Assembly (NCBI RefSeq): GCF_044324875.1
Contig: NZ_CP172185.1
DNA: 64,000 nt
Reading direction: 5' to 3' (one strand)
Source of the DNA: Escherichia coli
Lineage (GTDB): Bacteria; Pseudomonadota; Gammaproteobacteria; Enterobacterales; Enterobacteriaceae
The notes beneath the pieces were generated by a model. The model ran no database searches, was not told where the DNA came from, and saw nothing but the letters and a program-made list of their open reading frames with translations. Position 1 is the first letter of the stretch, and each line of letters opens with the position of its first letter. Both the position numbers and the translations under genes were made by a program. Positions 1,614 through 59,594 of the stretch are shown piece after piece.

Positions 1614-1888
1614 AACGATGTTGCAACATTATTCAGCGTCATGGAAAAAAGGACTGACTGCACTCTGCTTACTGGCTGTTGCCGGGCTTAGCGGCTGCGA
1701 TCAAAAAGAGAATGCGGCGGCAAAAGTGGAATACGACGAACTTTCGAACAGCCAACCGCTGCGTGTCGATGCTAATAACCATACGGTAACCATGCTGGTG
1801 CAAATTAATGGTCGTTTCCTCACCGACGACACTCGTCACGGTATTGTGAACCGCCCCGGGTTTCCTGGAGAGTGTTTTATCTGTGAAC

Positions 1889-2779
1889 TCAGGCTGCCAG
1901 ATCATCGTTTCCGATGGAAGCATAATAAGCTTTTTCTGCTTCTGCCGGTGGGATATGGCCCAGCCTTTCCAGCAATCGTCGATTGTTATACCAGTCCACC
2001 CACGTGAGTGTGGCCAGCTCCACTTCTGTCCGGTTTTTCCAGCTCTTACGGTGTATTACCTCCGCTTTGTAAAGGCCATTGATGCTCTCCGCCATCGCGT
2101 TGTCATACGAGTCACCAGTACTTCCTGTTGATGCCAGTAATCCGGCTTCCTTAAGCCGCTGTGTGTAGGCCAGCGATACATACTGAGAACCTTTATCACT
2201 GTGATGGACTGTGCCGGACGGTCGACGGGCCCATAACGCCTGCTCCAGAGCATCCAGCACGAATGTCGTTTCCATAGACGATGAGACCCGCCACCCCACG
2301 ATGTATCCGGCAAACACATCAATGATGAACGCCACATAGACGACCCCCTGCCATGTGCTGACGTAAGTAAAATCAGCCACCCACAACTGGTCAGGACGTT
2401 CTGCCACAAACTGACGGTTTACGCGGTCGCCTGCGGCAACGGCTTTCCGGCTGACGGTAGTGCGGACCTTTTTACCCCGGAGAACACCGGCAAGTCCCAT
2501 AACCGCCATGAGGCGCGCCACTGTACATCTGGCTACCCTGATTCCTTCCCGTAACAACTGACGCCAGACTTTACGCACACCGTATACCTGATGATTCCCA
2601 TCGTATACGCGCAGTATCTCTTTCTTCAGCCAGTCATCGCGCTGCGCACGGGCACTGCGTTTATCCGGATGATGTCGCTGTTGCTGACAGTGGTAATACG
2701 TTGACGGGGCAATATGTAGTTCACTGCATACCGGTCCGACCCCGTACAGCTTACGCAGCTTATCCAGCAGTGGCATCAC
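1889..2779 (-). CDS. IS629 OrfB (DDE transposase catalytic subunit)
   Basis: 296 aa rve-domain ORF with IS3-family DDE motifs. Confidence 0.9.
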
Positions 2780-3102
2780 TTTTTCCAGAGGCGGTCGAAC
2801 TCCGCCTTCGCAAAATAAGCGGAAGCCTGGCGAAGGATATCGTTACTGCGGCGCAGTTCACGATTTTCACGTTCCAGCTCTTTCAGACGCTGACGTTCAG
2901 CGGTGGTGAGCCCGCCATCACCGCCTCCGGTATCCCGCTCATGCTGGCGTACCCAGACACGCAGAGTCTCCGGTGTACAGCCAATCTTTGGGGCAATGGA
3001 ACAAATTGCCGCCCACTGTGAGTCATATTCGCCCTGACTTTCCAGAACCATACGAATCGCCCTCTGACGGACTTCGGGGGAAAAACGAGTATTTTTAGTC
3101 AT
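2776..3102 (-). CDS. IS629 OrfA (HTH transposase subunit)
   Basis: 108 aa [19 protein letters not shown]...; overlaps OrfB as in IS3-family programmed -1 frameshift organisation. Confidence 0.9.
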
Positions 3103-3622
3103 TCTGTTTACCTCTTTCTCAGGGAGTTTAGTCTCCAGGATTCCCGGGGCGGTTCATTGTGTTTAAAGATGGCTCCAACGGACATAAATCGCTGTTTATG
3201 GGTTATGCGACCCCGAAAGCATTTTATGAAGCCCTGAAAGAGGCAGGTGGTACACCGGGCGAAAACATGACGATGGATAATAAAGAAACGACTCATGTCA
3301 CAGGCAGCAAACTGGATATTTCGGTCAACTGGCAAGGGGCGGCAAAAGCGTATTCCTTCGATGAAGTGATTGTTGACAGTAATGGCAAGAAACTGGACAT
3401 GCGCTTTGGCGGTAATTTAACGGCAGCAGAAGAGAAGAAAACGGGCTGCCTGGTGTGTCTGGATAGCTGCCCGGTCGGCATCGTCAGCAATGCAACATAC
3501 ACTTATGGTGCGGTTGAAAAACGAGGTGAAGTTAAATTCAAAGGCAATGCCTCGGTTCTCCCGGCGGATAACACGCTGGCAACGGTTACCTTTAAAATCA
3601 CCGAATAAAGCCAGGATAAAGA

Positions 3623-29366: not shown

Positions 29367-30030
29367 TACATTATGATACATTCCCTCTGAAATATATTTC
29401 TACTTTGAGCGCCTCTGACTTTATGAGGCGCTTTGTCCAGCAAACCAAACATACTCGCTGGAAACAGAGTAAAGTATTATTATCCCCGATACATCTATAT
29501 TTTACAACAGCGCATCCATATATTAATTAACGATGCAGTTAAGTTCCCCATTCTACCCAATTTACTGTTTTTGTTGTTTGAAAGAAGACTCTCATTAAGT
29601 GAGAGCCATCTGTAAGTATCCCGCATAATCGCTCCATTCATATTTAGAGATCATCCGGAATAATCAATCTGATAACGAAGAAAATCGCTATGCGTAAAGC
29701 CCGTATTACTGAGTATTAGATCATCGCTGTAATTAAATCGGTTGAAACCGGACGAACAATTAAAGATGTTTGTCGGGAAGCCGGTATTTCTGAAGCCACT
29801 TACTACATCTATTGACTACCTCAGTTTTGCAAGCACTGATTCTGGTTTTGGATTGTTGCTTACATCTATCCGGCATCAGGAAAACCTGTGCCCAAATAGG
29901 GAATCCACACACAATCGCCTCTACAACTGGACGACCTCTGAGGCCAGTACAAAAATCAGGTTCCGATTGTGCAGGTGCAACCCGTCACCATTTCTCAGTA
30001 CGCTGCAACTTTTGCTGAAAGAGATTAACT

Positions 30031-30440
30031 TCACACTGCCTGATATTCTGTATCATTTATCAGCATCGACCAGATTATTCTCGCGTATTTGTTAGCAATC
30101 TCCACAGTAGTTTTATTAAATTCGCGACTCTCCTTTAACTGCTTAACCCACTGATTTAGGTATACATCATTATTATTCGTAGCAACTCTAACGACAGCAC
30201 GGACGCCATGAATAAAAAGTGTTTGCAGATGCTTGTCGCCTTTTTTCGTTATATTCATGAGAACTTACCTGCAGCAACTCTAGTGCAGGCATGGAAGCAG
30301 ACCAAGCCATGCAGCACAGTGACGATCATTCTTAAATTCAGTGCCTTTGCCAATAATAACAGCAACAACGCTCGTGACAATTTCAGGACCAATGCCTTTA
30401 GCTTTTGCAATACGCTGACAGCATTCAGATTGCCTGGACA
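30031..30440 (-). pseudogene. IS110-family transposase fragment
   Basis: C-terminal motifs IGPEIVTSVVA... and ...ANKYARIIWSML in shifted frames. Confidence 0.4.
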
Positions 30441-30502
30441 GGTCTCTATTTATTTATCAAAAAAGTTTATACTACGACCGAGATCGTTAAAGAGATCATC
30501 TA

Positions 30503-31655
30503 AATAGCTGCGCCTAATACCACTACACTTTTGCCAGCCCATGTTTGCCTCCGGGGAACGGGCTGATGGTTTCCATAAAATGGCGAATTTTTTTCAACAG
30601 TTGCCACATTGAGCGGCACTGATGATTACGCGTTATTGTGTCGTGAAGTGCCTGCCATAGCCGTTCAACATGATTCACCCATGGCAAGTAAACCGGCTGA
30701 TAAATGACCCTGAACTTCGGGTTCTCCTTCAACCAGCGCTGTGTTTCCCGGCTTTTGTGGATAATGTAGTTGTCCACGATCAGTGTGATGGTTTTCACCC
30801 GAAGGTATGTCGCTTTAAGCCGCTTCAGCAGGCTGATGAACAGCGCCGAACTTTTGCTGTTGCCGCCCACATAGCTGACTTTACCTGTCCCGCTGTGCAG
30901 CGCTCCGGCCAGATCATATTTTTCATTCTGTCCCGGCGTGACCACCCGTTTTTGCTGTCCGCGCAGTTGCCAGTCCGCACCGATTTTGGGATTAAGATGG
31001 ATATCCACTTCATCTTCATAAAAGACCGGATGCTCTGTGCTGCATTCGTCCAGTGCTTTATGGATTGCTGCCATCTTTTCATCTTTATGCGGGTCACGGA
31101 TACGCAGAGTTGGCGCAGCCCTTCGCCACACAATCCCCGCAGACGGCAACCAGCGGCGAACGGTTCCGGCATTTAACTGGCAATCGGTTATCTCATTGAT
31201 TTTTATTGCCAGCAGTTCTGTACTCCAGCGTGAACGCTGGTAGCCAAAGTCGCCGGGAGAATGTTTTACCAGCTCACGTAACAGTGTGCAGATATGCTCA
31301 AACGACCAGAGACGGGCTCGCCCGGCAGGTAATGATTTCAGTCCCTCAACACCCGACTGCGTGAACCAGTTAATCCAACATCCAACAGAGGAACGGGCGC
31401 AGCAGAGCGTTCTGGCAACGTCGCTGACACGGTCGCCCCGGTGCAGCATCAGCATGGCAGTCAGTCTGCGGGCATAATTTTTATCGTGTGTTTTATGGAT
31501 GGCTTTCTGCATCAGGCGTCGTTCGTCACGGGAAATTGGTGCTATGATCGGCATTGCTCAGTCCGGTTGGTGATTTGTTTTGATTTGGCGATTGATCAGA
31601 TCGCACAATCCAGGCTGAGCTCCCTCAAAGTGATCTACTATTCCGCGCAGCTATT
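30503..31655 (-). mobile_element. IS630, 1153 bp, inserted at CTAG with TA duplication
   Basis: 343 aa transposase matching IS630 as recalled; terminal IR AATAGCTGCGC; TA on both sides. Confidence 0.9.
30523..31554 (-). CDS. IS630 transposase (Tc1/mariner superfamily)
   Basis: 343 aa ORF MPIIAPISRDERRLMQKAIHK... Confidence 0.9.
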   Translation of the reverse strand: MPIIAPISRDERRLMQKAIHKTHDKNYARRLTAMLMLHRGDRVSDVARTLCCARSSVGCWINWFTQSGVEGLKSLPAGRARLWSFEHICTLLRELVKHSPGDFGYQRSRWSTELLAIKINEITDCQLNAGTVRRWLPSAGIVWRRAAPTLRIRDPHKDEKMAAIHKALDECSTEHPVFYEDEVDIHLNPKIGADWQLRGQQKRVVTPGQNEKYDLAGALHSGTGKVSYVGGNSKSSALFISLLKRLKATYLRVKTITLIVDNYIIHKSRETQRWLKENPKFRVIYQPVYLPWVNHVERLWQALHDTITRNHQCRSMWQLLKKIRHFMETISPFPGGKHGLAKV

Positions 31656-31789
31656 TAGTTCCGCTATCGTTCTGCACATACAAGCTTTTAACCCGTTTAT
31701 GCATCCTCAAGGCTCAGCAGAATAGCTGTCAGCGCCAATGATATAAGACAGTAATGGGGATGCGGACGATTTCCTGGACTCTCAGGAGA

Positions 31790-33110
31790 TGAAACATGTT
31801 TACTGAAGAAGAAAAAATCCGCGCCATTGAGCTTTATTTCAAATATGTGACCCGTCCTGAATAGCGTTGACACGTTCCTACTTAAATCCGGAGAACGTAA
31901 TGATGACTTAGCTCAAACGCACCCAACGTGATTATCCTCTATCCTTTAAAATAGCTGTTGTTGAGCAGGTTGAAAAAGGCGAGATGACTTATAAACAGGC
32001 CCAGCAGCGGTATGGCATTCAGGGGCGCTCCACCGTTCTTGTCTGGTTACGTAAATATCCTGGACTTCCTGAGCTGGTGAAGAGGAAACTGCCTGTGACT
32101 CAGACAACTATCCCGCTCACACCCGAGCAAAGAATCAGGGAACTTGAAACGTAGCTTGAGCTGGCGAACCAGAAAGCTACGTTTTTTGAGTCAGTTATCA
32201 ATGTCCTGAAAAATGATTACGGGGTGAGTATCGTAAAAAGCGGCCCGGCAAGTCCTCGCGCAAAGTCCGGTCCCCAAAATAACTGTGACGCGTGCAGTCT
32301 GTTCCTGGGACACAGCAGACAGGCATGGTATCAGGACAATGCAAGGCGCAGAAAACGGCAGGAACATCATGCTCAGGTTCTTGATTTTGTTGCCCGTGTC
32401 AGATGTCGTCAGCCCCGAATCGGTGCGCGTAAGCTGCACTATCTGCTGAACACTCAGGCCGATAAAAGGCTGAATATCGGGCGAGACCGCCTGTTTAACC
32501 TGCCCGATGAATACCGACTCCTGGTGCCAGTAAAACGGTCATATCACAAAACTACCAACAGCCATCATCGCTTCTACCGACATCCAAACCTGCTTAAACC
32601 AGGCCCTGAACAGGTTACTGCTCTTGAACCAGAACAGGTCCGGGTCGCCGATATTACTTACCTTCCACTGCGCAATAGTTCGGCCTATCTGAGTCTGGTC
32701 ACCGATGCCTGCTCCAGAAAAATTATGGGCTACCATGTTGGGGAAAACCTGCAGACAGAAAATGTGGTAAAAGCGTTCAGACAGGTGCTGAAGCTGAGAA
32801 AAACGACGAGTCCCCTGGTGCATCATTCTGGCAGGGGCTGCAATACTGTTCAGCGCTCTATCAGTCAGTTCATGAAAGAAATGAAATAACCTGTTCAATG
32901 ACTGATGGTTATGACTGCTACCAGCATTGGCTGAGTGAATAAATGGTACCCTGAAAAATGAGTTTTTACTCTCGCGTCCTGCAGACCTGGCTCAGGCCCG
33001 GGAAATGGTCCAAGAGTCCGTGGCAATTTATAACCATGAGCGGCCACACCTGGCTCTGAAATACAAAACGCCCTATGACGTTCATCAGGCGTTTTACAGA
33101 CAGAAAAGTG
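31790..33110 (+). pseudogene. Degenerate IS3-family element (OrfA/OrfB with several stops)
   Basis: Frames read ...YPLSFKIAVVEQVEKGEMTYKQAQQRYGIQG... and ...RIGARKLHYLL...VADITYLPL... Confidence 0.5.
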
Positions 33111-33129
33111 TCAACTTATACCAAGACTA

Positions 33130-33750
33130 GTCAATGGTAAGAAGCTGGCTCCCGTCGTACGCGAACTGGGCTACCCTTCGAAAAGAAATCTGCGGCGTTG
33201 GATCCGTTCATAGGAATCAGGTGGCGGAGCAAAAGAATCCATTCGCCATAAGCCCCGTTACACAGATGAGCAAAAACAAGTTGCCGTTGAACATTATCTT
33301 AACCACGGCTGCTGCCTAGCGTTTACCAGTAGAACTCTGGGTTATCCCTGTACCGATGTGCTCGCTCGCTGGGTTAATGAACGTTACCCCGGCAGACGAC
33401 GTATATTTACCAGTAAGACCAGTCCGGTTGCGCCCTTTGAACCAGAAGTCAAACGTCAGGCTGTCATGGCATTCTGTACACGACAAATATCAGCCAGTGA
33501 AATCTCTAGGCGTATTGGTGTCAGTCGTGCGGTATTGTATAAATGGAAAGATGAAATTATCGGCAACAGTGCTTACCAGACTATGCGTAAACATAACGAA
33601 CCTTCCCTGGAGGCAGAACGCGATGCGTTGCGGGAGGAAGTCGCCCGACTGAATCAGGAAATACGCCGCCGGCAGATGGAACTGGATATTCTGAAAAAAG
33701 CGGAGAAAATCATAAAAAATCTATGGTCACCCCCGTTTTTGCTACACTGA
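33130..33750 (+). pseudogene. IS3-family (IS150-group) OrfA with in-frame TAG
   Basis: ...IRS*ESGG...ISRRIGVSRAVLYKWKDE...LDILKKAEKII; its OrfB resumes at 36352. Confidence 0.5.
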
Positions 33751-34178
33751 TTTTTGATTAATGGTGGGCTTGCTTAAATCTATCCGGCGTCTCTGTGGAC
33801 AAGGAGACCCGCGCCTCGATGAGTTCCGCACCTGATAATCCTAAAAAGACCCTCGGCTTCAGTGAGCCATTTTTTCTGTCAGGTTTTTAATCAGGTCTAT
33901 TTGCCGTTCATGTCATCAATAATCAGTCTTCGCAAAACCAGACAGGTAACTTGTATCTTATTTTTTAAAATAAGCTAATTGAGTTTTGTCAGTATCTATA
34001 TCAGGCCTGATATTCTTTGTGCAGAGCAGTGATTGCCCAGGCTATTCGGGCCAGTTTATTTGCCAGAGCGCAGGCGACAATATTTGAATGCTTATTGTCG
34101 AGTTGCTTTTGAACCCATTCAGCAACTCTGCCCTATTGAACCGCCCCGGGTTTCCTGGAGAGTGTTTTATCTGTGAAC

Positions 34179-35069
34179 TCAGGCTGCCAGATCATCGTTT
34201 CCGATGGAAGCATAATAAGATTTTTCTGCTTCTGCCGGTGGGATATGGCCCAGCCTTTCCAGCAATCGTCGATTGTTATACCAGTCCACCCACGTGAGTG
34301 TGGCCAGCTCCACTTCTGTCCGGTTTTTCCAGCTCTTACGGTGTATTACCTCCGCTTTGTAAAGGCCATTGATGCTCTCCGCCATCGCGTTGTCATACGA
34401 GTCACCAGTACTTCCTGTTGATGCCAGTAATCCGGCTTCCTTAAGCCGCTGTGTGTAGGCCAGCGATACATACTGAGAACCTTTATCACTGTGATGGACT
34501 GTGCCGGACGGTCGACGGGCCCATAACGCCTGCTCCAGAGCATCCAGCACGAATGTCGTTTCCATAGACGATGAGACCCGCCACCCCACGATGTATCCGG
34601 CAAACACATCAATGATGAACGCCACATAGACGACCCCCTCCCATGTGCTGACGTAAGTAAAATCAGCCACCCACAACTGGTCAGGACGTTCTGCCACAAA
34701 CTGACGGTTTACGCGGTCGCCTGCGGCAACGGCTTTCCGGCTGACGGTAGTGCGGACCTTTTTACCCCGGAGAACACCGGCAAGTCCCATAACCGCCATG
34801 AGGCGCGCCACTGTACATCTGGCTACCCTGATTCCTTCCCGTAACAACTGACGCCAGACTTTACGCACACCGTATACCTGATGATTCCCATCGTATACGC
34901 GCAGTATCTCTTTCTTCAGCCAGTCATCGCGCTGCGCACGGGCACTGCGTTTATCCGGATGATGTCGCTGTTGCTGACAGTGGTAATACGTTGACGGGGC
35001 AATATGTAGTTCACTGCATACCGGTCCGACCCCGTACAGCTTACGCAGCTTATCCAGCAGTGGCATCAC
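34179..35069 (-). CDS. IS629 OrfB
   Basis: Identical to copy 1 OrfB except for one residue (Q/E). Confidence 0.9.
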
Positions 35070-35392
35070 TTTTTCCAGAGGCGGTCGAACTCCGCCTTCG
35101 CAAAATAAGCGGAAGCCTGGCGAAGGATATCGTTACTGCGGCGCAGTTCACGATTTTCACGTTCCAGCTCTTTCAGACGCTGACGTTCAGCGGTGGTGAG
35201 CCCGCCATCACCGCCTCCGGTATCCCGCTCATGCTGGCGTACCCAGACACGCAGAGTCTCCGGTGTACAGCCAATCTTTGGGGCAATGGAACAAATTGCC
35301 GCCCACTGTGAGTCATATTCGCCCTGACTTTCCAGAACCATACGAATCGCCCTCTGACGGACTTCGGGGGAAAAACGAGTATTTTTAGTCAT
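35066..35392 (-). CDS. IS629 OrfA
   Basis: Identical to copy 1 OrfA except for one residue. Confidence 0.9.
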
Positions 35393-36351
35393 TCTGTTTA
35401 CCTCTTTCTCAGGGAGTTTAGTCTCCAGGATTCCCGGGGCGGTTCACTATTGATGCTCCAGCCGCATCATGAACGAGCGGGCGTACAGAACAAGTAACCG
35501 ACTCGTTTGCTGATCCCCAGCAGCATTGATTTACCACCGGTACTGTATTGTCGGGGAACAAGTCCTGTGGATGCTGCAAAATCCCTACTGCACGAAAATT
35601 GTTTACCATCACCAAGCTGGGATGATAGCAGGCTGGCCGTCATCGGCCCAACACCGGGGATTGTCATGATTCGTTGCACAGTAGCGTCAGCTTTGATTGA
35701 CTGGTTTAACTCTGATTCCAGTTCTGTTATTTGCTCAATACGATAAAGATAGTGAGCATGTAATTTCATCAGCAAGCGACTCAGATATTCAGGTATTTCG
35801 TGTTCAGCTAACGCCAGAGATAACCATTTTATTGCGGCATCCCCTGTCGGCAGTCTGATTCCAAATTCCAGCAAGAAACCGTGGATCTGGTTGTTTTTTT
35901 TCACCTTATCTCTGATGAGCGATTCTCTGACCCGATGTAATGCCCTCATTGCCTGCTGGGTTTCTGTTCTGGGCTGGACAAAACGCATTGATGGTCGTGA
36001 AGCCGCTTTGCATATGGCTTCTGCATCAATAAAATCATTCTTATTACCTTTGACAAACGGACGCACGAATTACGGAGAGATAAGTTTTTCTTCATGACCG
36101 ATGTCGCTGATACGCCGGGCCATAAAATGCGTACCAGCGCAGGCTTCCATAACAACTACTGAGGATGGACATGTTGCCAGAAACTGCATCAGCTTCGTAC
36201 GCGTAAACTTTTTACGCAAAAGCGCATTGCCAGATTTATCTTGACAATGAATATGGAAAGAATGTTTACCGAGATCGATACCAATAAGCGCAACGTTTTA
36301 CATGATGGTGCCCTCTAAAATAACCCACCCTGTCAGCGTACCGCTCACAGG

Positions 36352-37256
36352 GTGGGGGTGACCATCTCATTAGACCCGGGCATCAGTATCAGTCACCTAA
36401 ACAACAGAGAAAAAACAAATATCGCTGATGCCCTGAGACAAACATATCCCCTGACAGAATTACTGCATGTTCTGGGGCTTGCCCGTAGCAGTTATTTTTA
36501 TCACCGGGCTGCACTGAAAGCCGGTGATAAATACGCCACGATACGTACGATGCTGACAGATATAGTTAACAGTAATTACCAGTGTTATGGCTATCGTCGC
36601 CTGCATGCGATGCTCAGGCATGAGGGGGTCAGCTATCAGAAAAGGTTGTAAGCAGACTTATGGTGAAGGAACAGCTTGTCGTCAGCCGTAACCGTCGTCG
36701 CCGCTACAGCTCATATTGCGGAGAAATCGGACCGGATCCGGATAACCTTATCGCCAGAGATTTTAAGGAGGACCAACCTAATCAGAAATGGCTGACAGAT
36801 ATAACGGAGTTCCAGCTTCCTGCAGGAAAAGTCTGGCTGTCACAGGTGGTGGACTGCTTCGATGGAAAAGTTGTGAGCTGGTCTCTCAGTACACGCCCCG
36901 ACGCAGAACTGGTTAACGCTATGCTGGATAACGCTGTCAAAACGTTAAATGCTGGCGAACGACCGATGATACACAGTGGCAGAGGTGGGCATTATCGCTG
37001 GCCAGGCTGGCTGGAAAGAGTTAATGCCGCAGGTCTTATTCACTCAATGTCCCGTAAGGATGATGCCGCATGCGAAGGCTTTTTCGGCAGACTGAAAACG
37101 GAAATGTATTATGGGCGTAAATGGTCGGGCATCATGCCGGAAAAGTTCATGCAGCATGTGGATGCTTACATCAGAGGGTATAACGAGCGGCGTATAAAAT
37201 TATCGCTGGGTGAAGACAGCCCTGAAATGTACCGCCAACAATGTAGGCTGGAATAA
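36352..37256 (+). pseudogene. IS3-family (IS150-group) OrfB, frameshifted
   Basis: ORFs 36352..36651 and 36660..37256 in different frames; ...NQKWLTDITEF... DDE region. Confidence 0.6.
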
Positions 37257-37799
37257 TAAAGAAGTCCAGGAAATCGTCCGCATCCCCAAAACGGCCAATA
37301 ATCTTGGCGTTGACATAGCACGACGATCTCTTGAAACTACCGCGCCGATAGTTATTCCCCAATCAAGCAACAGTCCCCTGATTTGACAAACGGTCACATT
37401 AACAATATGCTGCCTTGCCCGGTGCAAAGCGTAGATATCCTGTTGTTCCGAGCTTTTTGGAGGCATGAACAGCATTGTCGGTTACATCAGAAGCACTGCG
37501 ATGGCCTGTGCATCATTACCGTCATTTTTTGCCCACAGACAAAGGGAGTTACATACTGTGGGTTGAGGACCTTTACGTTATGCCCCAGTTTTTTAAATTC
37601 ACTCTGCCAGTAAAATTCCCATGTGGATGCCCTACATCAATTAGGAAGGCCGGAATATTCGCCACTATTTGGAGTAATTCTTTTCTGCCAATACGTTTTG
37701 AATAAACCGGATTACCGACCTAATTTAACCCGCAGAGCTGAAAGATATTTTTATCCAGATCAATACCCAGGAATACGATATTCATTGTGATTCCCCTGC

Positions 37800-38560
37800 T
37801 GAGTGAGTGCATTTCGTACAGTTAACCGCAAAAGGAGGGGGTACTCCATTCCATGAACTGGAAGCCCAGATACGATGCATAGAGTCACCTGATATTAAAA
37901 AGAACGAGGATCTTGAGGACGAGAACCGACGTCCAAAACAGATGCTTGCCGACCTTAGCCTAGAGAACCGGCATTGAAAGACATTATCGAAAAAAGCTTT
38001 AAAACCAGCCTGTAAGCGTGAGCTTGTTACTCATCAGATAACGACATTTGGACTCAGTGTCCATCAGGCCTGCCGGAGTCTGAACCAGAGCAGAACGGTT
38101 TCCCATTACCGTCCGGATACCACGTGGTACGACCCCGTTATTGTGGTGGTGCAGGCAGTGGACGAGCGATATCCTCGATACGGTTTTTCAAAACTTTTTC
38201 AGGTTCTGAGGCAGCAGGTTCGCGGCAAATCGCAGTTATCCGGTCATGCTGCGCATAGATAATGGTTCGGAATTTATCTCTCTAACGCTGGCTGAATGGG
38301 CTGATATACACGCAGTAAAACGGGAGTTTATCCAGCCGGGTAAGCTGACGTAGAACGCTTTTATTGGGCGTTTTAACAGGACACACCGTACAGAAATACT
38401 CGATTTTTATCTGTTCAGAACGCTGAATGAAGTTCTAGAAATTACGGAGAAATGGTTATCAGAATATAGCTATGAACGCACACATGAATCACTGAACAAT
38501 AAGACGCTGGAAGAATATCGACGACACCATTATTTGACCAAGATATAAAAATGCATGGAA
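37800..38560 (+). pseudogene. Degenerate IS3-family OrfB with several in-frame stops
   Basis: ...MLRIDNGSEFISLTLAEWADIHAVKREFIQPGKLT*NAFIGRFNRTHRTEILDFYLF... Confidence 0.5.
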
Positions 38561-38707
38561 TTAAAACGGGGCATATTTATATATGAATAACACAACTATA
38601 TCGCTAAGGTAAAGGTGTATCCAAACGGAGAATACAGCACTAACAGCATATATTCATCCAAATTAATAAAATATGACCGAGAACATAGAATATTAAACAT
38701 TTTTAAA

Positions 38708-39967
38708 TTATGCTTTTCTCGCTAACGCGTCTATATCCGAAAAATACTCTTTAATTCCCTCTAGGATAGATTCTGCCACTTGTTGTTGGAATCTTGCCGT
38801 TTTCAGTTTGCGCTCTTCCTCAACGTTACTGATAAACGCCGTTTCGACCAGAATGGAGGGAATATCAGGTGCTTTCAGCACGGCAAACCCGGCCTGTTCA
38901 ACCTGATTTTTATGCAGCTTGTTGATTTTACCGAGCTTATTCAGCACCGCTTTACCCAACTTCAGGCTGTCGGCAATGGTCAGAGACTGCACCATATCGA
39001 ACATGGTGTGGTCGACATAGCGGTCACCGCTTTTGCTCACGCCGCCAATCAAGTCCGAGGCGTTCTGGGTTTGTGCCAGATATTTTGCCGCAGTACTTGT
39101 CGCGCCTTTGGTCGAAAGCGCAAACACGGAAGAACCGCTCGGCTGGCGACTGGTAAAGGCATCAGCATGGATAGAAACAAAAAGGTCAGCACGTTGTTTC
39201 TGTGCTTTTGCTACACGCACTTGCAACGGAATGAAGATGTCTTCATTGCGCGTCATGTACACCTTCATATTACCCTCTTTTTCGATCAGAGAGCGCAGAC
39301 GGCGAGCTATTTGCAATACCACGTCTTTTTCGCGTGTTTTGTATTTCCCCACCGCACCGGGGTCTTCGCCACCGTGGCCGGGGTCAAGCATAATGACAAT
39401 CGGACGATCACGCCCTGCTTTACCCGGTTGTGGACCACTTTGTGCTGGCGGCACCTGCTTTTCGAGGTCGCCTTTGTTGTAATCCTCCAGCAGCGCCAGC
39501 AGCGGGTCCTGCATATCCTGTGCATTGGCCGGATAGAGGTCCATCACCAGACGCTCTTTAAACCCGGCGACCGGCGCAAGGGCAAACAGCTGCGGTTTTA
39601 CGTTTTGCTTTAATTCAAAAACCATGCGTACGGTTTGCGGGTCAAATTGCCCGACGCGCGCCGACTTGATGAACGGGTCGTCTGCACGAATTTGTGCCGC
39701 CATCCCCTTGAGTACCGAGTTCAGGTTTACATCTTCGATATCCACCACCACACGTTCAGGGTTACTTAACGCGAACTGCTTATATTGCAGCTGACGATTT
39801 GATTCTACCGTCACGCGGGTGTAGCTGGACGCAGGCCAGACGCGTACCGCCACGACCTGGCTGACCGCAGCCAGGCTGACCTGACTTACGCTCAATAGCC
39901 ACATGGCGCCCGCACCTTGCAGTAAACGACGACGGCTGATTACATAATTATAGTTAGATACCAGCAT
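38708..39967 (-). CDS. amiC: N-acetylmuramoyl-L-alanine amidase AmiC (Tat-exported), divergent 5' end
   Basis: 419 aa; [10 protein letters not shown] Tat motif; body matches AmiC as recalled; first ~10 codons and upstream DNA differ from K-12 and are AT-rich. Confidence 0.8.
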
Positions 39968-59435: not shown

Positions 59436-59594
59436 CCTGTATCCCGCTCATACTGGCTAACCCAGACACGCAGAGTCTGTGGCGTACAGCCAGCATTTGA
59501 GGCAATGGAACAAATTACCCCAATTGTGAATCATACTCATCCTGTTTACCTCTTTCTCAGGGAGTTTAGTCTCCAGGATTCCCGGAGCAGTTCA
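59436..59594 (-). mobile_element. IS629-like right-end remnant with internal deletion
   Basis: Matches the IS629 OrfA-start/right-IR region (...CAGGGAGTTTAGTCTCCAGGATTCCCGG...GTTCA) with about 85 bp missing. Confidence 0.6.

Follow-up and report, generated by a model that had tools for sequence, protein, structure and literature searches.

The 64,000-nt stretch of Escherichia coli chromosome analyzed here (NCBI RefSeq assembly GCF_044324875.1, contig NZ_CP172185.1; hereafter the window, to which all positions refer unless another record is named) contains an accessory island flanked by iha and amiC. Within this island nucleotides 29690-38573 consist of serially nested insertion sequences (IS), arranged in six layers (Table 1). 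From the outside inwards these are the remnant of an IS3-family element (layer 0), an IS1111-type pseudo-element, the second of that type in the nest and called IS110b here (layer 1), an IS630-family element (layer 2a) beside a unit bounded by the ends of an ISEc62-like element of the IS21 family (layer 2b), an IS150-group element of the IS3 family (layer 3), an inner IS3-family pseudo-element (layer 4a) beside an ISSfl8-like element of the IS1111 family (layer 4b), and IS629 (layer 5). The only undamaged genes are those of IS629 and that of the IS630-family transposase. Every layer belongs to a known family and nested ISs are common in the islands of E. coli and Shigella; as nests go, this one is of the ordinary kind. 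Nucleotides 31700-37350 are matched by many complete E. coli genomes, in which the Prokaryotic Genome Annotation Pipeline (PGAP) lists genes or fragments of IS630, IS3-family and IS110-family elements followed by amiC. The evidence lies at the junctions, in full-length matches, target duplications and exact empty sites, a pattern for which chance is excluded, and taken as a whole the account of serial nested insertion is one that we hold with high confidence. Records used for comparison are cited by L numbers.

The innermost element, IS629, is intact. It possesses terminal inverted repeats with 28-nt arms, 89% complementary and beginning TGAACCGCCCC, two intact open reading frames (ORFs) of 108 and 296 amino acids on the minus strand, and an ALIL frameshift pseudoknot (Rfam, 116 bits against a gathering score of 50). 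Its identity to the IS629 annotated in phage BP-4795 is 96.0% over 1310/1310 nt, and to the "IS3 family IS629" of Stx2 phages 95.6%. In ISfinder practice, isoforms share at least 95% nucleotide identity with the reference IS, and both values, which were obtained with phage-annotated copies of IS629, lie above that line. In length, terminal repeats, an orfA/orfB pair with ALIL and 3-4-bp duplications the copy resembles IS629 (IS3 family, IS3 group; isoforms IS1203 and IS3411); being ~4% diverged from the O157 and Stx-phage copies, it is an isoform and not the type sequence. Excision in silico of IS629 with one CTAT leaves a sequence showing 100% full-length identity to uninterrupted copies in other genomes. 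Fifty-nine records hold the surrounding composite (at least 99% identity) without IS629, and in none of the complete genomes of the collection that carry the composite does IS629 occupy this position. IS629 therefore arrived last, and no other element is recent; being still active as well, it is usable as a marker for strain typing. Elsewhere in the window there are a second complete IS629 (1847-3156), 99.85% identical to the nest copy and flanked by a TTG duplication, and a 61-nt IS629 end fragment (59534-59594; 93% identity).

The gene that IS629 interrupts belongs to the ISSfl8-like element, which measures 1338 bp once IS629 and one CTAT are removed. Its boundaries were set by the empty site ATCATAAAAAA^AGACCCGGG (the caret marks the insertion point, after which the sequence begins AGACCC), found in three independent uninterrupted copies of the IS150-group element (L008, L019 and L020); the A7 target of the window-type element is ATAAAAAA^AGACCC. 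Comparison of filled and empty sites revealed no target duplication, and the subterminal inverted repeats are perfect over 12 nt. The gene runs from 36303 to 34001 on the minus strand, with 68 nt of non-coding sequence upstream and 281 nt downstream (33720-34000). Its conceptual product scores 304 bits (cutoff 140; 1.2e-90) with the model NF033542, "IS110 family RNA-guided transposase". The gene is dead: codon 2 is TAA, there are an internal TAA and also a TAG, and deletion of 16 nt shifts the frame. Subterminal repeats, a non-coding region downstream of the gene and the absence of a duplication are hallmarks of the IS1111 family (Siddiquee et al. 2024, PMC11187229), and the element combines all of them with a DEDD transposase.

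The closest named element is ISSfl8, with 83.5% DNA identity over the full length to copies that PGAP labels as such. At this level, below the 95% isoform threshold, the window element is a relative of ISSfl8, yet distinct from it. ISSfl8 itself shows ~70% protein identity to IS4321 and IS5075 (supplementary identity matrix of PMC11187229), and with the members of this clade the element shares a DEDD transposase, 12-nt subterminal repeats with short extensions, the lack of a duplication, a non-coding region downstream of the gene, and insertion specific for site and orientation. Unlike ISSfl8, of which an intact transposase is available (WP_001179707.1), the window copy is dead, has four changed guide nucleotides and sits in the A-run of an IS150-group element rather than in a DUF4942 gene. 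Site and orientation of the ISSfl8-like element are shared between the window and L003, a plasmid of enterotoxigenic E. coli; in L004 and L017 this also holds at the surviving junctions, the right ends being truncated or replaced. In strain CUVET19-1937 (L017 1-509) an additional, intact transposase gene of the IS110 family has replaced the right end or interrupts it, an arrangement that would be a further variant of the nesting. A first assignment of the boundaries, by analogy with IS621, to the subterminal repeats with a duplicated "CT core" was rejected: the uninterrupted IS150-group copies lack TCT...CTCATT, and only the wider boundaries give joined flanks that the guide segment described below matches.

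The IS150-group element in which this insertion lies has perfect 26-nt terminal inverted repeats (TGGGG...CCCCA; 31755-31780 and 37263-37288), an OrfA that starts at 31796 and a stop codon at 37254-37256. Removal of both of its inserts yields 1593 bp that are colinear, at 94% identity, with copies of 1604-1605 bp in more than 800 genomes, and restores the frame over the ISSfl8-like junction (...KKAEKIIKK^DPGISISH...) as in the intact 510-amino acid reference. The window copy is itself a pseudogene: it has a TAG stop of its own and has lost 1 nt at one place and 12 nt at another. It matches NF033516 (IS3 family; 4e-107), and its OrfB shows 41% identity to InsK of IS150 against 24% to OrfB of IS629, values which support the label "IS150-group" and not identity with IS150. 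Like IS150 of E. coli K-12 (insJ/insK), it has a long OrfA and an A-run at the OrfA/OrfB boundary; unlike IS150, it has an OrfA of only weak similarity (25% over 84 amino acids) and a length of ~1605 bp, compared with 1443 bp. Two reference copies differ in the A-run, which is the target of the ISSfl8-like element: the one with A7 (L019 342-1874, from a plasmid) has a single uninterrupted 510-amino acid ORF (WP_142438185.1), and the one with A6 (L021 342-1873) is annotated with a programmed frameshift.

The other insert, in OrfA, is an IS3-family pseudo-element with imperfect TG...CA inverted ends and a match to NF033516, whose full-length relatives measure 1311-1312 bp and are 95% identical. 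In the related composite on plasmid L003 the ISSfl8-like element is present and this inner IS3-family element absent, which suggests, if the two composites share ancestry, that the latter would have come after the ISSfl8-like element.

On either side of the IS150-group element lie short segments identical to the two ends of ISEc62, the termini of which could be read at a tandem ISEc62 junction on plasmid L022. Relatives of IS110b that are without exactly these 55 nt and one TAGC represent the empty site. No istA or istB is present between the IS21 ends, which enclose the IS150-group element instead; the unit is a non-autonomous derivative with another IS as its cargo, not an IS21-family IS in its own right. 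With ISEc62 and with IS21-type miniature end pairs it has in common the terminal segments of 28 and 27 nt and a 4-bp duplication, and it differs from ISEc62 in the missing istA and istB and in the IS150-group element that it carries. The IS150-group element alone was considered as the unit that entered IS110b and was ruled out, as the IS110b relatives lack the extra 55 nt of ISEc62 ends and comparison with them shows the TAGC duplication.

Several observations touch on such IS21 ends elsewhere. Miniature elements of ~50 nt made of two ISEc62-like termini only (L023 1501-1547; L024 1501-1553) occur, unannotated, in ~950 of 5426 complete E. coli genomes, O157:H7 included, and look like IS21-derived miniature inverted-repeat transposable elements. 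On plasmid L022 (1500-1560) tandem ISEc62 copies are separated, right end to left end, by AA only, an (IS21)2-type reactive junction. The 27-nt right end of ISEc62 adjoins, on plasmids L019 (274-326) and L021, the left inverted repeat of the IS150-group element; its neighbour in the window (37263-37315) is the right inverted repeat. The IS150-group element of the plasmids thus has the opposite orientation relative to the IS21 end; an istB fragment lies on its other side, and the association is a recurrent one.

The outer layers complete the nest. IS110b, whose gene starts at 37785, stops at 30031 and matches NF033542, aligns after removal of the IS21-end unit and the IS630-family element over 96% of its length with uninterrupted IS110-family elements (~81% identity). 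Its relatives in L009 and L010 share with it both orientation and site of insertion, in the orfA of an IS3-family element; L011 shares the left-end junction only, its right end being truncated. The boundaries of the IS630-family element are approximate, as nucleotide-exact ends cannot be fixed from its diverged relatives. Its transposase is intact (343 amino acids, 30523-31554, minus strand; NF033545, 1.5e-72), and the corresponding protein WP_001354603.1 is annotated by PGAP at the same position in L001, L002 and L012.

Nesting fixes the order of the chain: first the IS3-family remnant, then IS110b, the IS21-end unit with the IS150-group element, the ISSfl8-like element and finally IS629. The nest thereby provides a clean relative chronology of the island. 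A first-pass annotation of this DNA had described three levels, with IS629 splitting an IS110-family gene that in turn splits an IS150-group element, and had read them as a record of the order of insertion. That nest is real, with target duplications and empty sites, and physical nesting does give the relative order; "IS629 copy 2" with its CTAT flanks had been placed exactly. Three levels are not the full depth, however, and the outer element starts at 31755 instead of 33130 and contains an insert that had been missed. The IS110-family element is present as proposed, its extent (~33725..36350) now corrected by the empty site, and the OrfA and OrfB pieces (33130..33750 and 36352..37256) do flank it, although the ORFs as quoted run 20-31 nt into the insert. 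Excision of the inner elements had been expected to return contiguous outer frames. At each junction the result is colinear with uninterrupted copies (100% on removal of IS629, 94% for the IS150-group element), but the reading frames of the outer elements are not intact, because these elements keep independent stops, frameshifts and small deletions of their own; they are old pseudogenes.

Table 1. Insertion sequences of the nest, their ends and duplications, and the guide-like segments of the ISSfl8-like element and its relatives
Feature	Layer	Position	Strand	Remarks
IS3-family remnant, 5' piece	0	29690-29806	+	OrfA N-terminus MRKARITEY(stop)...GISEATYY, cut after codon YY; NF033516
IS3-family remnant, 3' piece	0	37856-38573	+	joins in frame as ...ATYY^NWK...; decayed
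IS110b, second IS1111-type pseudo-element	1	29807-37855	-	own DNA 29807-30504, 31654-31726, 37316-37855
IS630-family element	2a	~30505-31653	-	TA both sides; inverted ends GCTGCGCC.../...GCGCAGC
IS21-family left end	2b	31727-31754	+	28 nt, identical to ISEc62 left end
IS21-family right end	2b	37289-37315	+	27 nt, identical to ISEc62 right end
TAGC target duplication	2b	31723-31726 and 37316-37319	.	flanks unit 31727-37315
IS150-group (IS3-family) element	3	31755-37288	+	own DNA 31755-31847, 33134-33719, 36372-37288
Inner IS3-family pseudo-element	4a	31848-33133	+	1286 bp, in OrfA; ATG duplication 31845-47 and 33134-36
ISSfl8-like element	4b	33720-36371	-	own DNA 33720-34136 and 35447-36371
Subterminal inverted repeat ATGGTCACCCCC	4b	33723-33734	.	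3 nt from right end
Partner repeat GGGGGTGACCAT	4b	36354-36365	.	6 nt from left end
Guide-like segment A, GAAAAAA	4b	33876-33870	-	complementary to T-run of target top strand
Guide-like segment B, GGGUCUUUUU	4b	33852-33843	-	equals joined target GGGTCT^TTTT across insertion point, 10 nt; would pair with bottom strand
IS629, intact	5	34137-35446	-	1310 bp; CTAT duplication at 34133-36 and 35447-50
Guides of ISSfl8 (L005)				segment A GAUGAAA; segment B GGGGAU...
Guides of pINV copy (L007)				segment A GGGGAAAA; segment B GGGGAU...

The events that would have produced this structure can be set out in five steps. An IS3-family element adjoining amiC would have been the starting resident (step 1), and IS110b, an IS1111-type element, would have entered its orfA in a site-specific manner (step 2). 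IS110b would then have gained the IS630-family element and the ISEc62-like, IS21-end-bounded unit, which made the TAGC duplication and carried the IS150-group element (step 3). Into the latter would have gone the ISSfl8-like element, at the A-run of the OrfA/OrfB frameshift site, and another IS3-family element, in OrfA, with the ATG duplication (step 4). Lastly, an active IS629 would have entered the dead ISSfl8-like transposase gene and produced the CTAT duplication (step 5). The IS3-family, IS630-family and IS21-type steps represent ordinary DDE transposition with target duplications. Both IS1111-type steps represent insertion by a DEDD recombinase without duplication, most likely directed by a seekRNA or bridge RNA encoded in the downstream non-coding region of each element, two short guide segments of which match the two strands of the target.

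Some features of the nest do not sit easily with this scheme. Nesting gives no order for sister insertions within a layer, namely the IS630-family element and the IS21-end unit, or the inner IS3-family element and the ISSfl8-like element. A clean target duplication of the IS150-group element was found neither in the window, where its flanks are TAA and AAA, nor in L008, L019 or L020, and an AAA duplication can be deduced only by combining L003 with the window. The IS150-group element may have become enclosed by the IS21 ends along either of two routes. One is insertion into a pre-existing miniature element of ~50 nt. The other is insertion into a full ISEc62-like IS21 element that created an AAA duplication and was succeeded by an adjacent deletion, a course suggested by the junction in L003, where the left end of the IS150-group element abuts the interior of an IS21-like right end.

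The missing duplication could also be taken to mean that homologous recombination between dispersed IS copies, or an artefact of assembly, produced the arrangement in place of nested transposition. IS-rich regions are prone to recombination and to misassembly, and the junctions in L019 and L021, where the same IS21 end meets the opposite end of the IS150-group element, imply some rearrangement in the past. Against this stand the clean duplications of IS629 (CTAT), the inner IS3-family element (ATG), the IS21-end unit (TAGC) and the IS630-family element (TA), the exact empty sites known for both the IS21-end unit and the ISSfl8-like element, and the occurrence of the IS629-free composite in 59 independently assembled complete genomes. 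This explanation is largely refuted, and we regard it as very improbable.

How the ISSfl8-like element came to its site was approached through an alignment with relatives found in five other contexts. Two short segments of the downstream non-coding region, designated A and B, vary among them; the rest of that region is strongly conserved. Segment A lies 5' of segment B on the transposase strand, with a GGCU...AGCC hairpin between them in the window copy; the seekRNAs of the IS1111 family have the same order, the top-strand match being 5' of the bottom-strand match (PMC11187229). The window element has GGGTCT beyond its left end and TTTTTT beyond its right end, ISSfl8 has GGGGAT and TTTCATC at these places (six loci, all in a DUF4942 gene), and the pINV copy (L007) has TTTTCCCC beyond its right end. 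Segment A tracks the right-end flank, with GAUGAAA/gatgaaa in ISSfl8, GGGGAAAA/ggggaaaa in L007 and GAAAAAA/aaaaaa in the window, and segment B tracks the left-end flank, reading GGGGAU in ISSfl8, where that flank is GGGGAT. This covariation extends over the window, L003, the ISSfl8 loci L005, L013 and L014, and L007, a small sample with three target classes (the IS150-group A-run, DUF4942 and the pINV site of L007).

In 67 of 5000 shuffles of the non-coding region the 10-nt match of segment B was reached, and when the ISSfl8-like non-coding region was compared with the target of the other element the match was only 6 nt. For IS110b, a segment of the downstream non-coding region (29921-29931) equals the joined target over 11 nt, a length attained by 4 of 5000 shuffles. 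Because the guide segments match the site, covary with the flanks and lie in the published order of IS1111 seekRNAs, the insertion of the ISSfl8-like element into the A-run frameshift site of the IS150-group element was probably RNA-guided; from these sequences we infer that an RNA would be produced and would guide the insertion.

A number of results weigh against RNA guidance. The relative in L006 matches its own flanks imperfectly. An Rfam scan of 29500-39000 returned only ALIL and isrN, and no model for the guide region; the predicted fold is no more stable than those of shuffled sequences (z = -0.2). RNAalifold, run on a mixed alignment of nine sequences from two lineages, misaligned the guide loop and did not recover it; all that it retrieved was a portion of a downstream domain, supported by 3 compensatory pairs. 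All ISSfl8-like copies inside the IS150-group element are pseudogenes, ~5% diverged together with the host element, and may stem from a single insertion, which would leave one event for this target.

Four guide nucleotides differ from those of ISSfl8, and the changes match the IS150-group site instead of DUF4942, so that the passage from ISSfl8 to this target would be a natural example of guide retargeting in the IS1111 family. There is precedent for both aspects (PMC11187229): ISEc21, of the IS110 family, targets the DDE codons of IS3-family elements, and natural retargeting is known from ISEc11 and ISXne4, close relatives in such pairs differing mainly in the target-matching bases of the seekRNA. 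RNA-guided homing of an IS110/IS1111-type element to a conserved IS3-family site and retargeting through guide bases would be common to those cases and to the present one. Unlike ISEc21, the elements described here are IS1111-type, with the non-coding region downstream, and their targets would be the IS150-group A-run and the ATYY^NWK codons of another OrfA. They would add two more cases of RNA-guided elements homing into IS3-family genes to the published one.

A more far-reaching proposal is that two IS1111-type lineages have specialized, through their guide RNAs, in homing into constrained motifs of IS3-family transposase genes (the slippery A-run and the ATYY^NWK codons), and so are RNA-guided parasites of ISs, the ISSfl8-like element being a natural four-nucleotide reprogramming. 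We consider this proposal evenly poised between acceptance and rejection. What may be new here is minor, namely an unnamed relative of ISSfl8 whose programmed target differs from that of ISSfl8, and a further lineage directed at a different motif of the IS3 family.

ISSfl8 proper (L005 and L013-L016) is always found at GATGAAA^ATCCCC in a DUF4942 gene beside CbtA/CbeA-type toxin-antitoxin genes, in several different islands. A common ISSfl8-like insertion in a DUF4942 gene (Z1226) has been taken as evidence of a shared ancestor for two islands (PMC7371111). As insertion of the ISSfl8 type is directed to one site, its presence at an identical place in two islands says little for their common descent, and the argument of that study is weakened.

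The first-pass annotation had also seen in the nest a sign that ISs are preferred landing sites. As a general statement this goes too far, and what can be retained is the sequence-specific homing of the two IS1111-type layers, each to one short site in an IS3-family gene. That IS DNA as such attracts insertions, by its structure, its AT content or its resemblance to the transposase's own ends, seems to us unlikely. Every layer of the nest is an IS, and IS629 has entered it elsewhere in two other strains, in the same orientation: in strain 1517k (L001 4394-5703) at the equivalent of window position 33090-92, with a CGT duplication, and in strain LR-31 (L012 6030-7339) at the equivalent of 33726-28, with a GTC duplication. 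With the window copy and its CTAT, these are three independent insertions within ~1.1 kb of the nest in three strains. They are three events among ~60 carriers, however, with several IS629 copies per genome, and are not clearly above expectation, for which no background rate was computed; a single short and specific target accounts for each of the IS1111-type insertions, and ISSfl8 proper targets a gene, DUF4942, that is not part of an IS. For IS629 the three insertions are only suggestive, and survival in dead DNA explains them equally well.

Such survival is the essence of a neutral sink, in which insertions land anywhere, are spared by selection only in dead DNA, and build up nests passively; taken as the general cause, this has in our estimation about an even chance of being right. 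All host elements are pseudogenes with independent lesions, the nest lies in an accessory island, and IS629 and the inner IS3-family element have no obvious target motif in common; the duplications of the IS629 copies are CTAT, TTG, CGT and GTC, 3-4 bp in length. The reuse of an exact nucleotide position and orientation by the IS1111-type elements, and the covariation of guides and flanks, are left unexplained by it. Where the layers are of the DDE type, passive survival explains them no less well than attraction to ISs does; here a neutral sink is compatible with the best explanation and probably contributes to it. For the two IS1111-type layers, RNA-guided homing to a short site is the reading that we prefer.

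One further feature of the outermost layer was revealed by the Rfam scan. Inside the IS3-family remnant, antisense to it at 38001-38143 (minus strand), lies a full-length match to isrN, an Hfq-binding small RNA (sRNA) family (138 bits against a gathering score of 44). The isrN "sRNA" family may simply be a piece of that IS3-family element.

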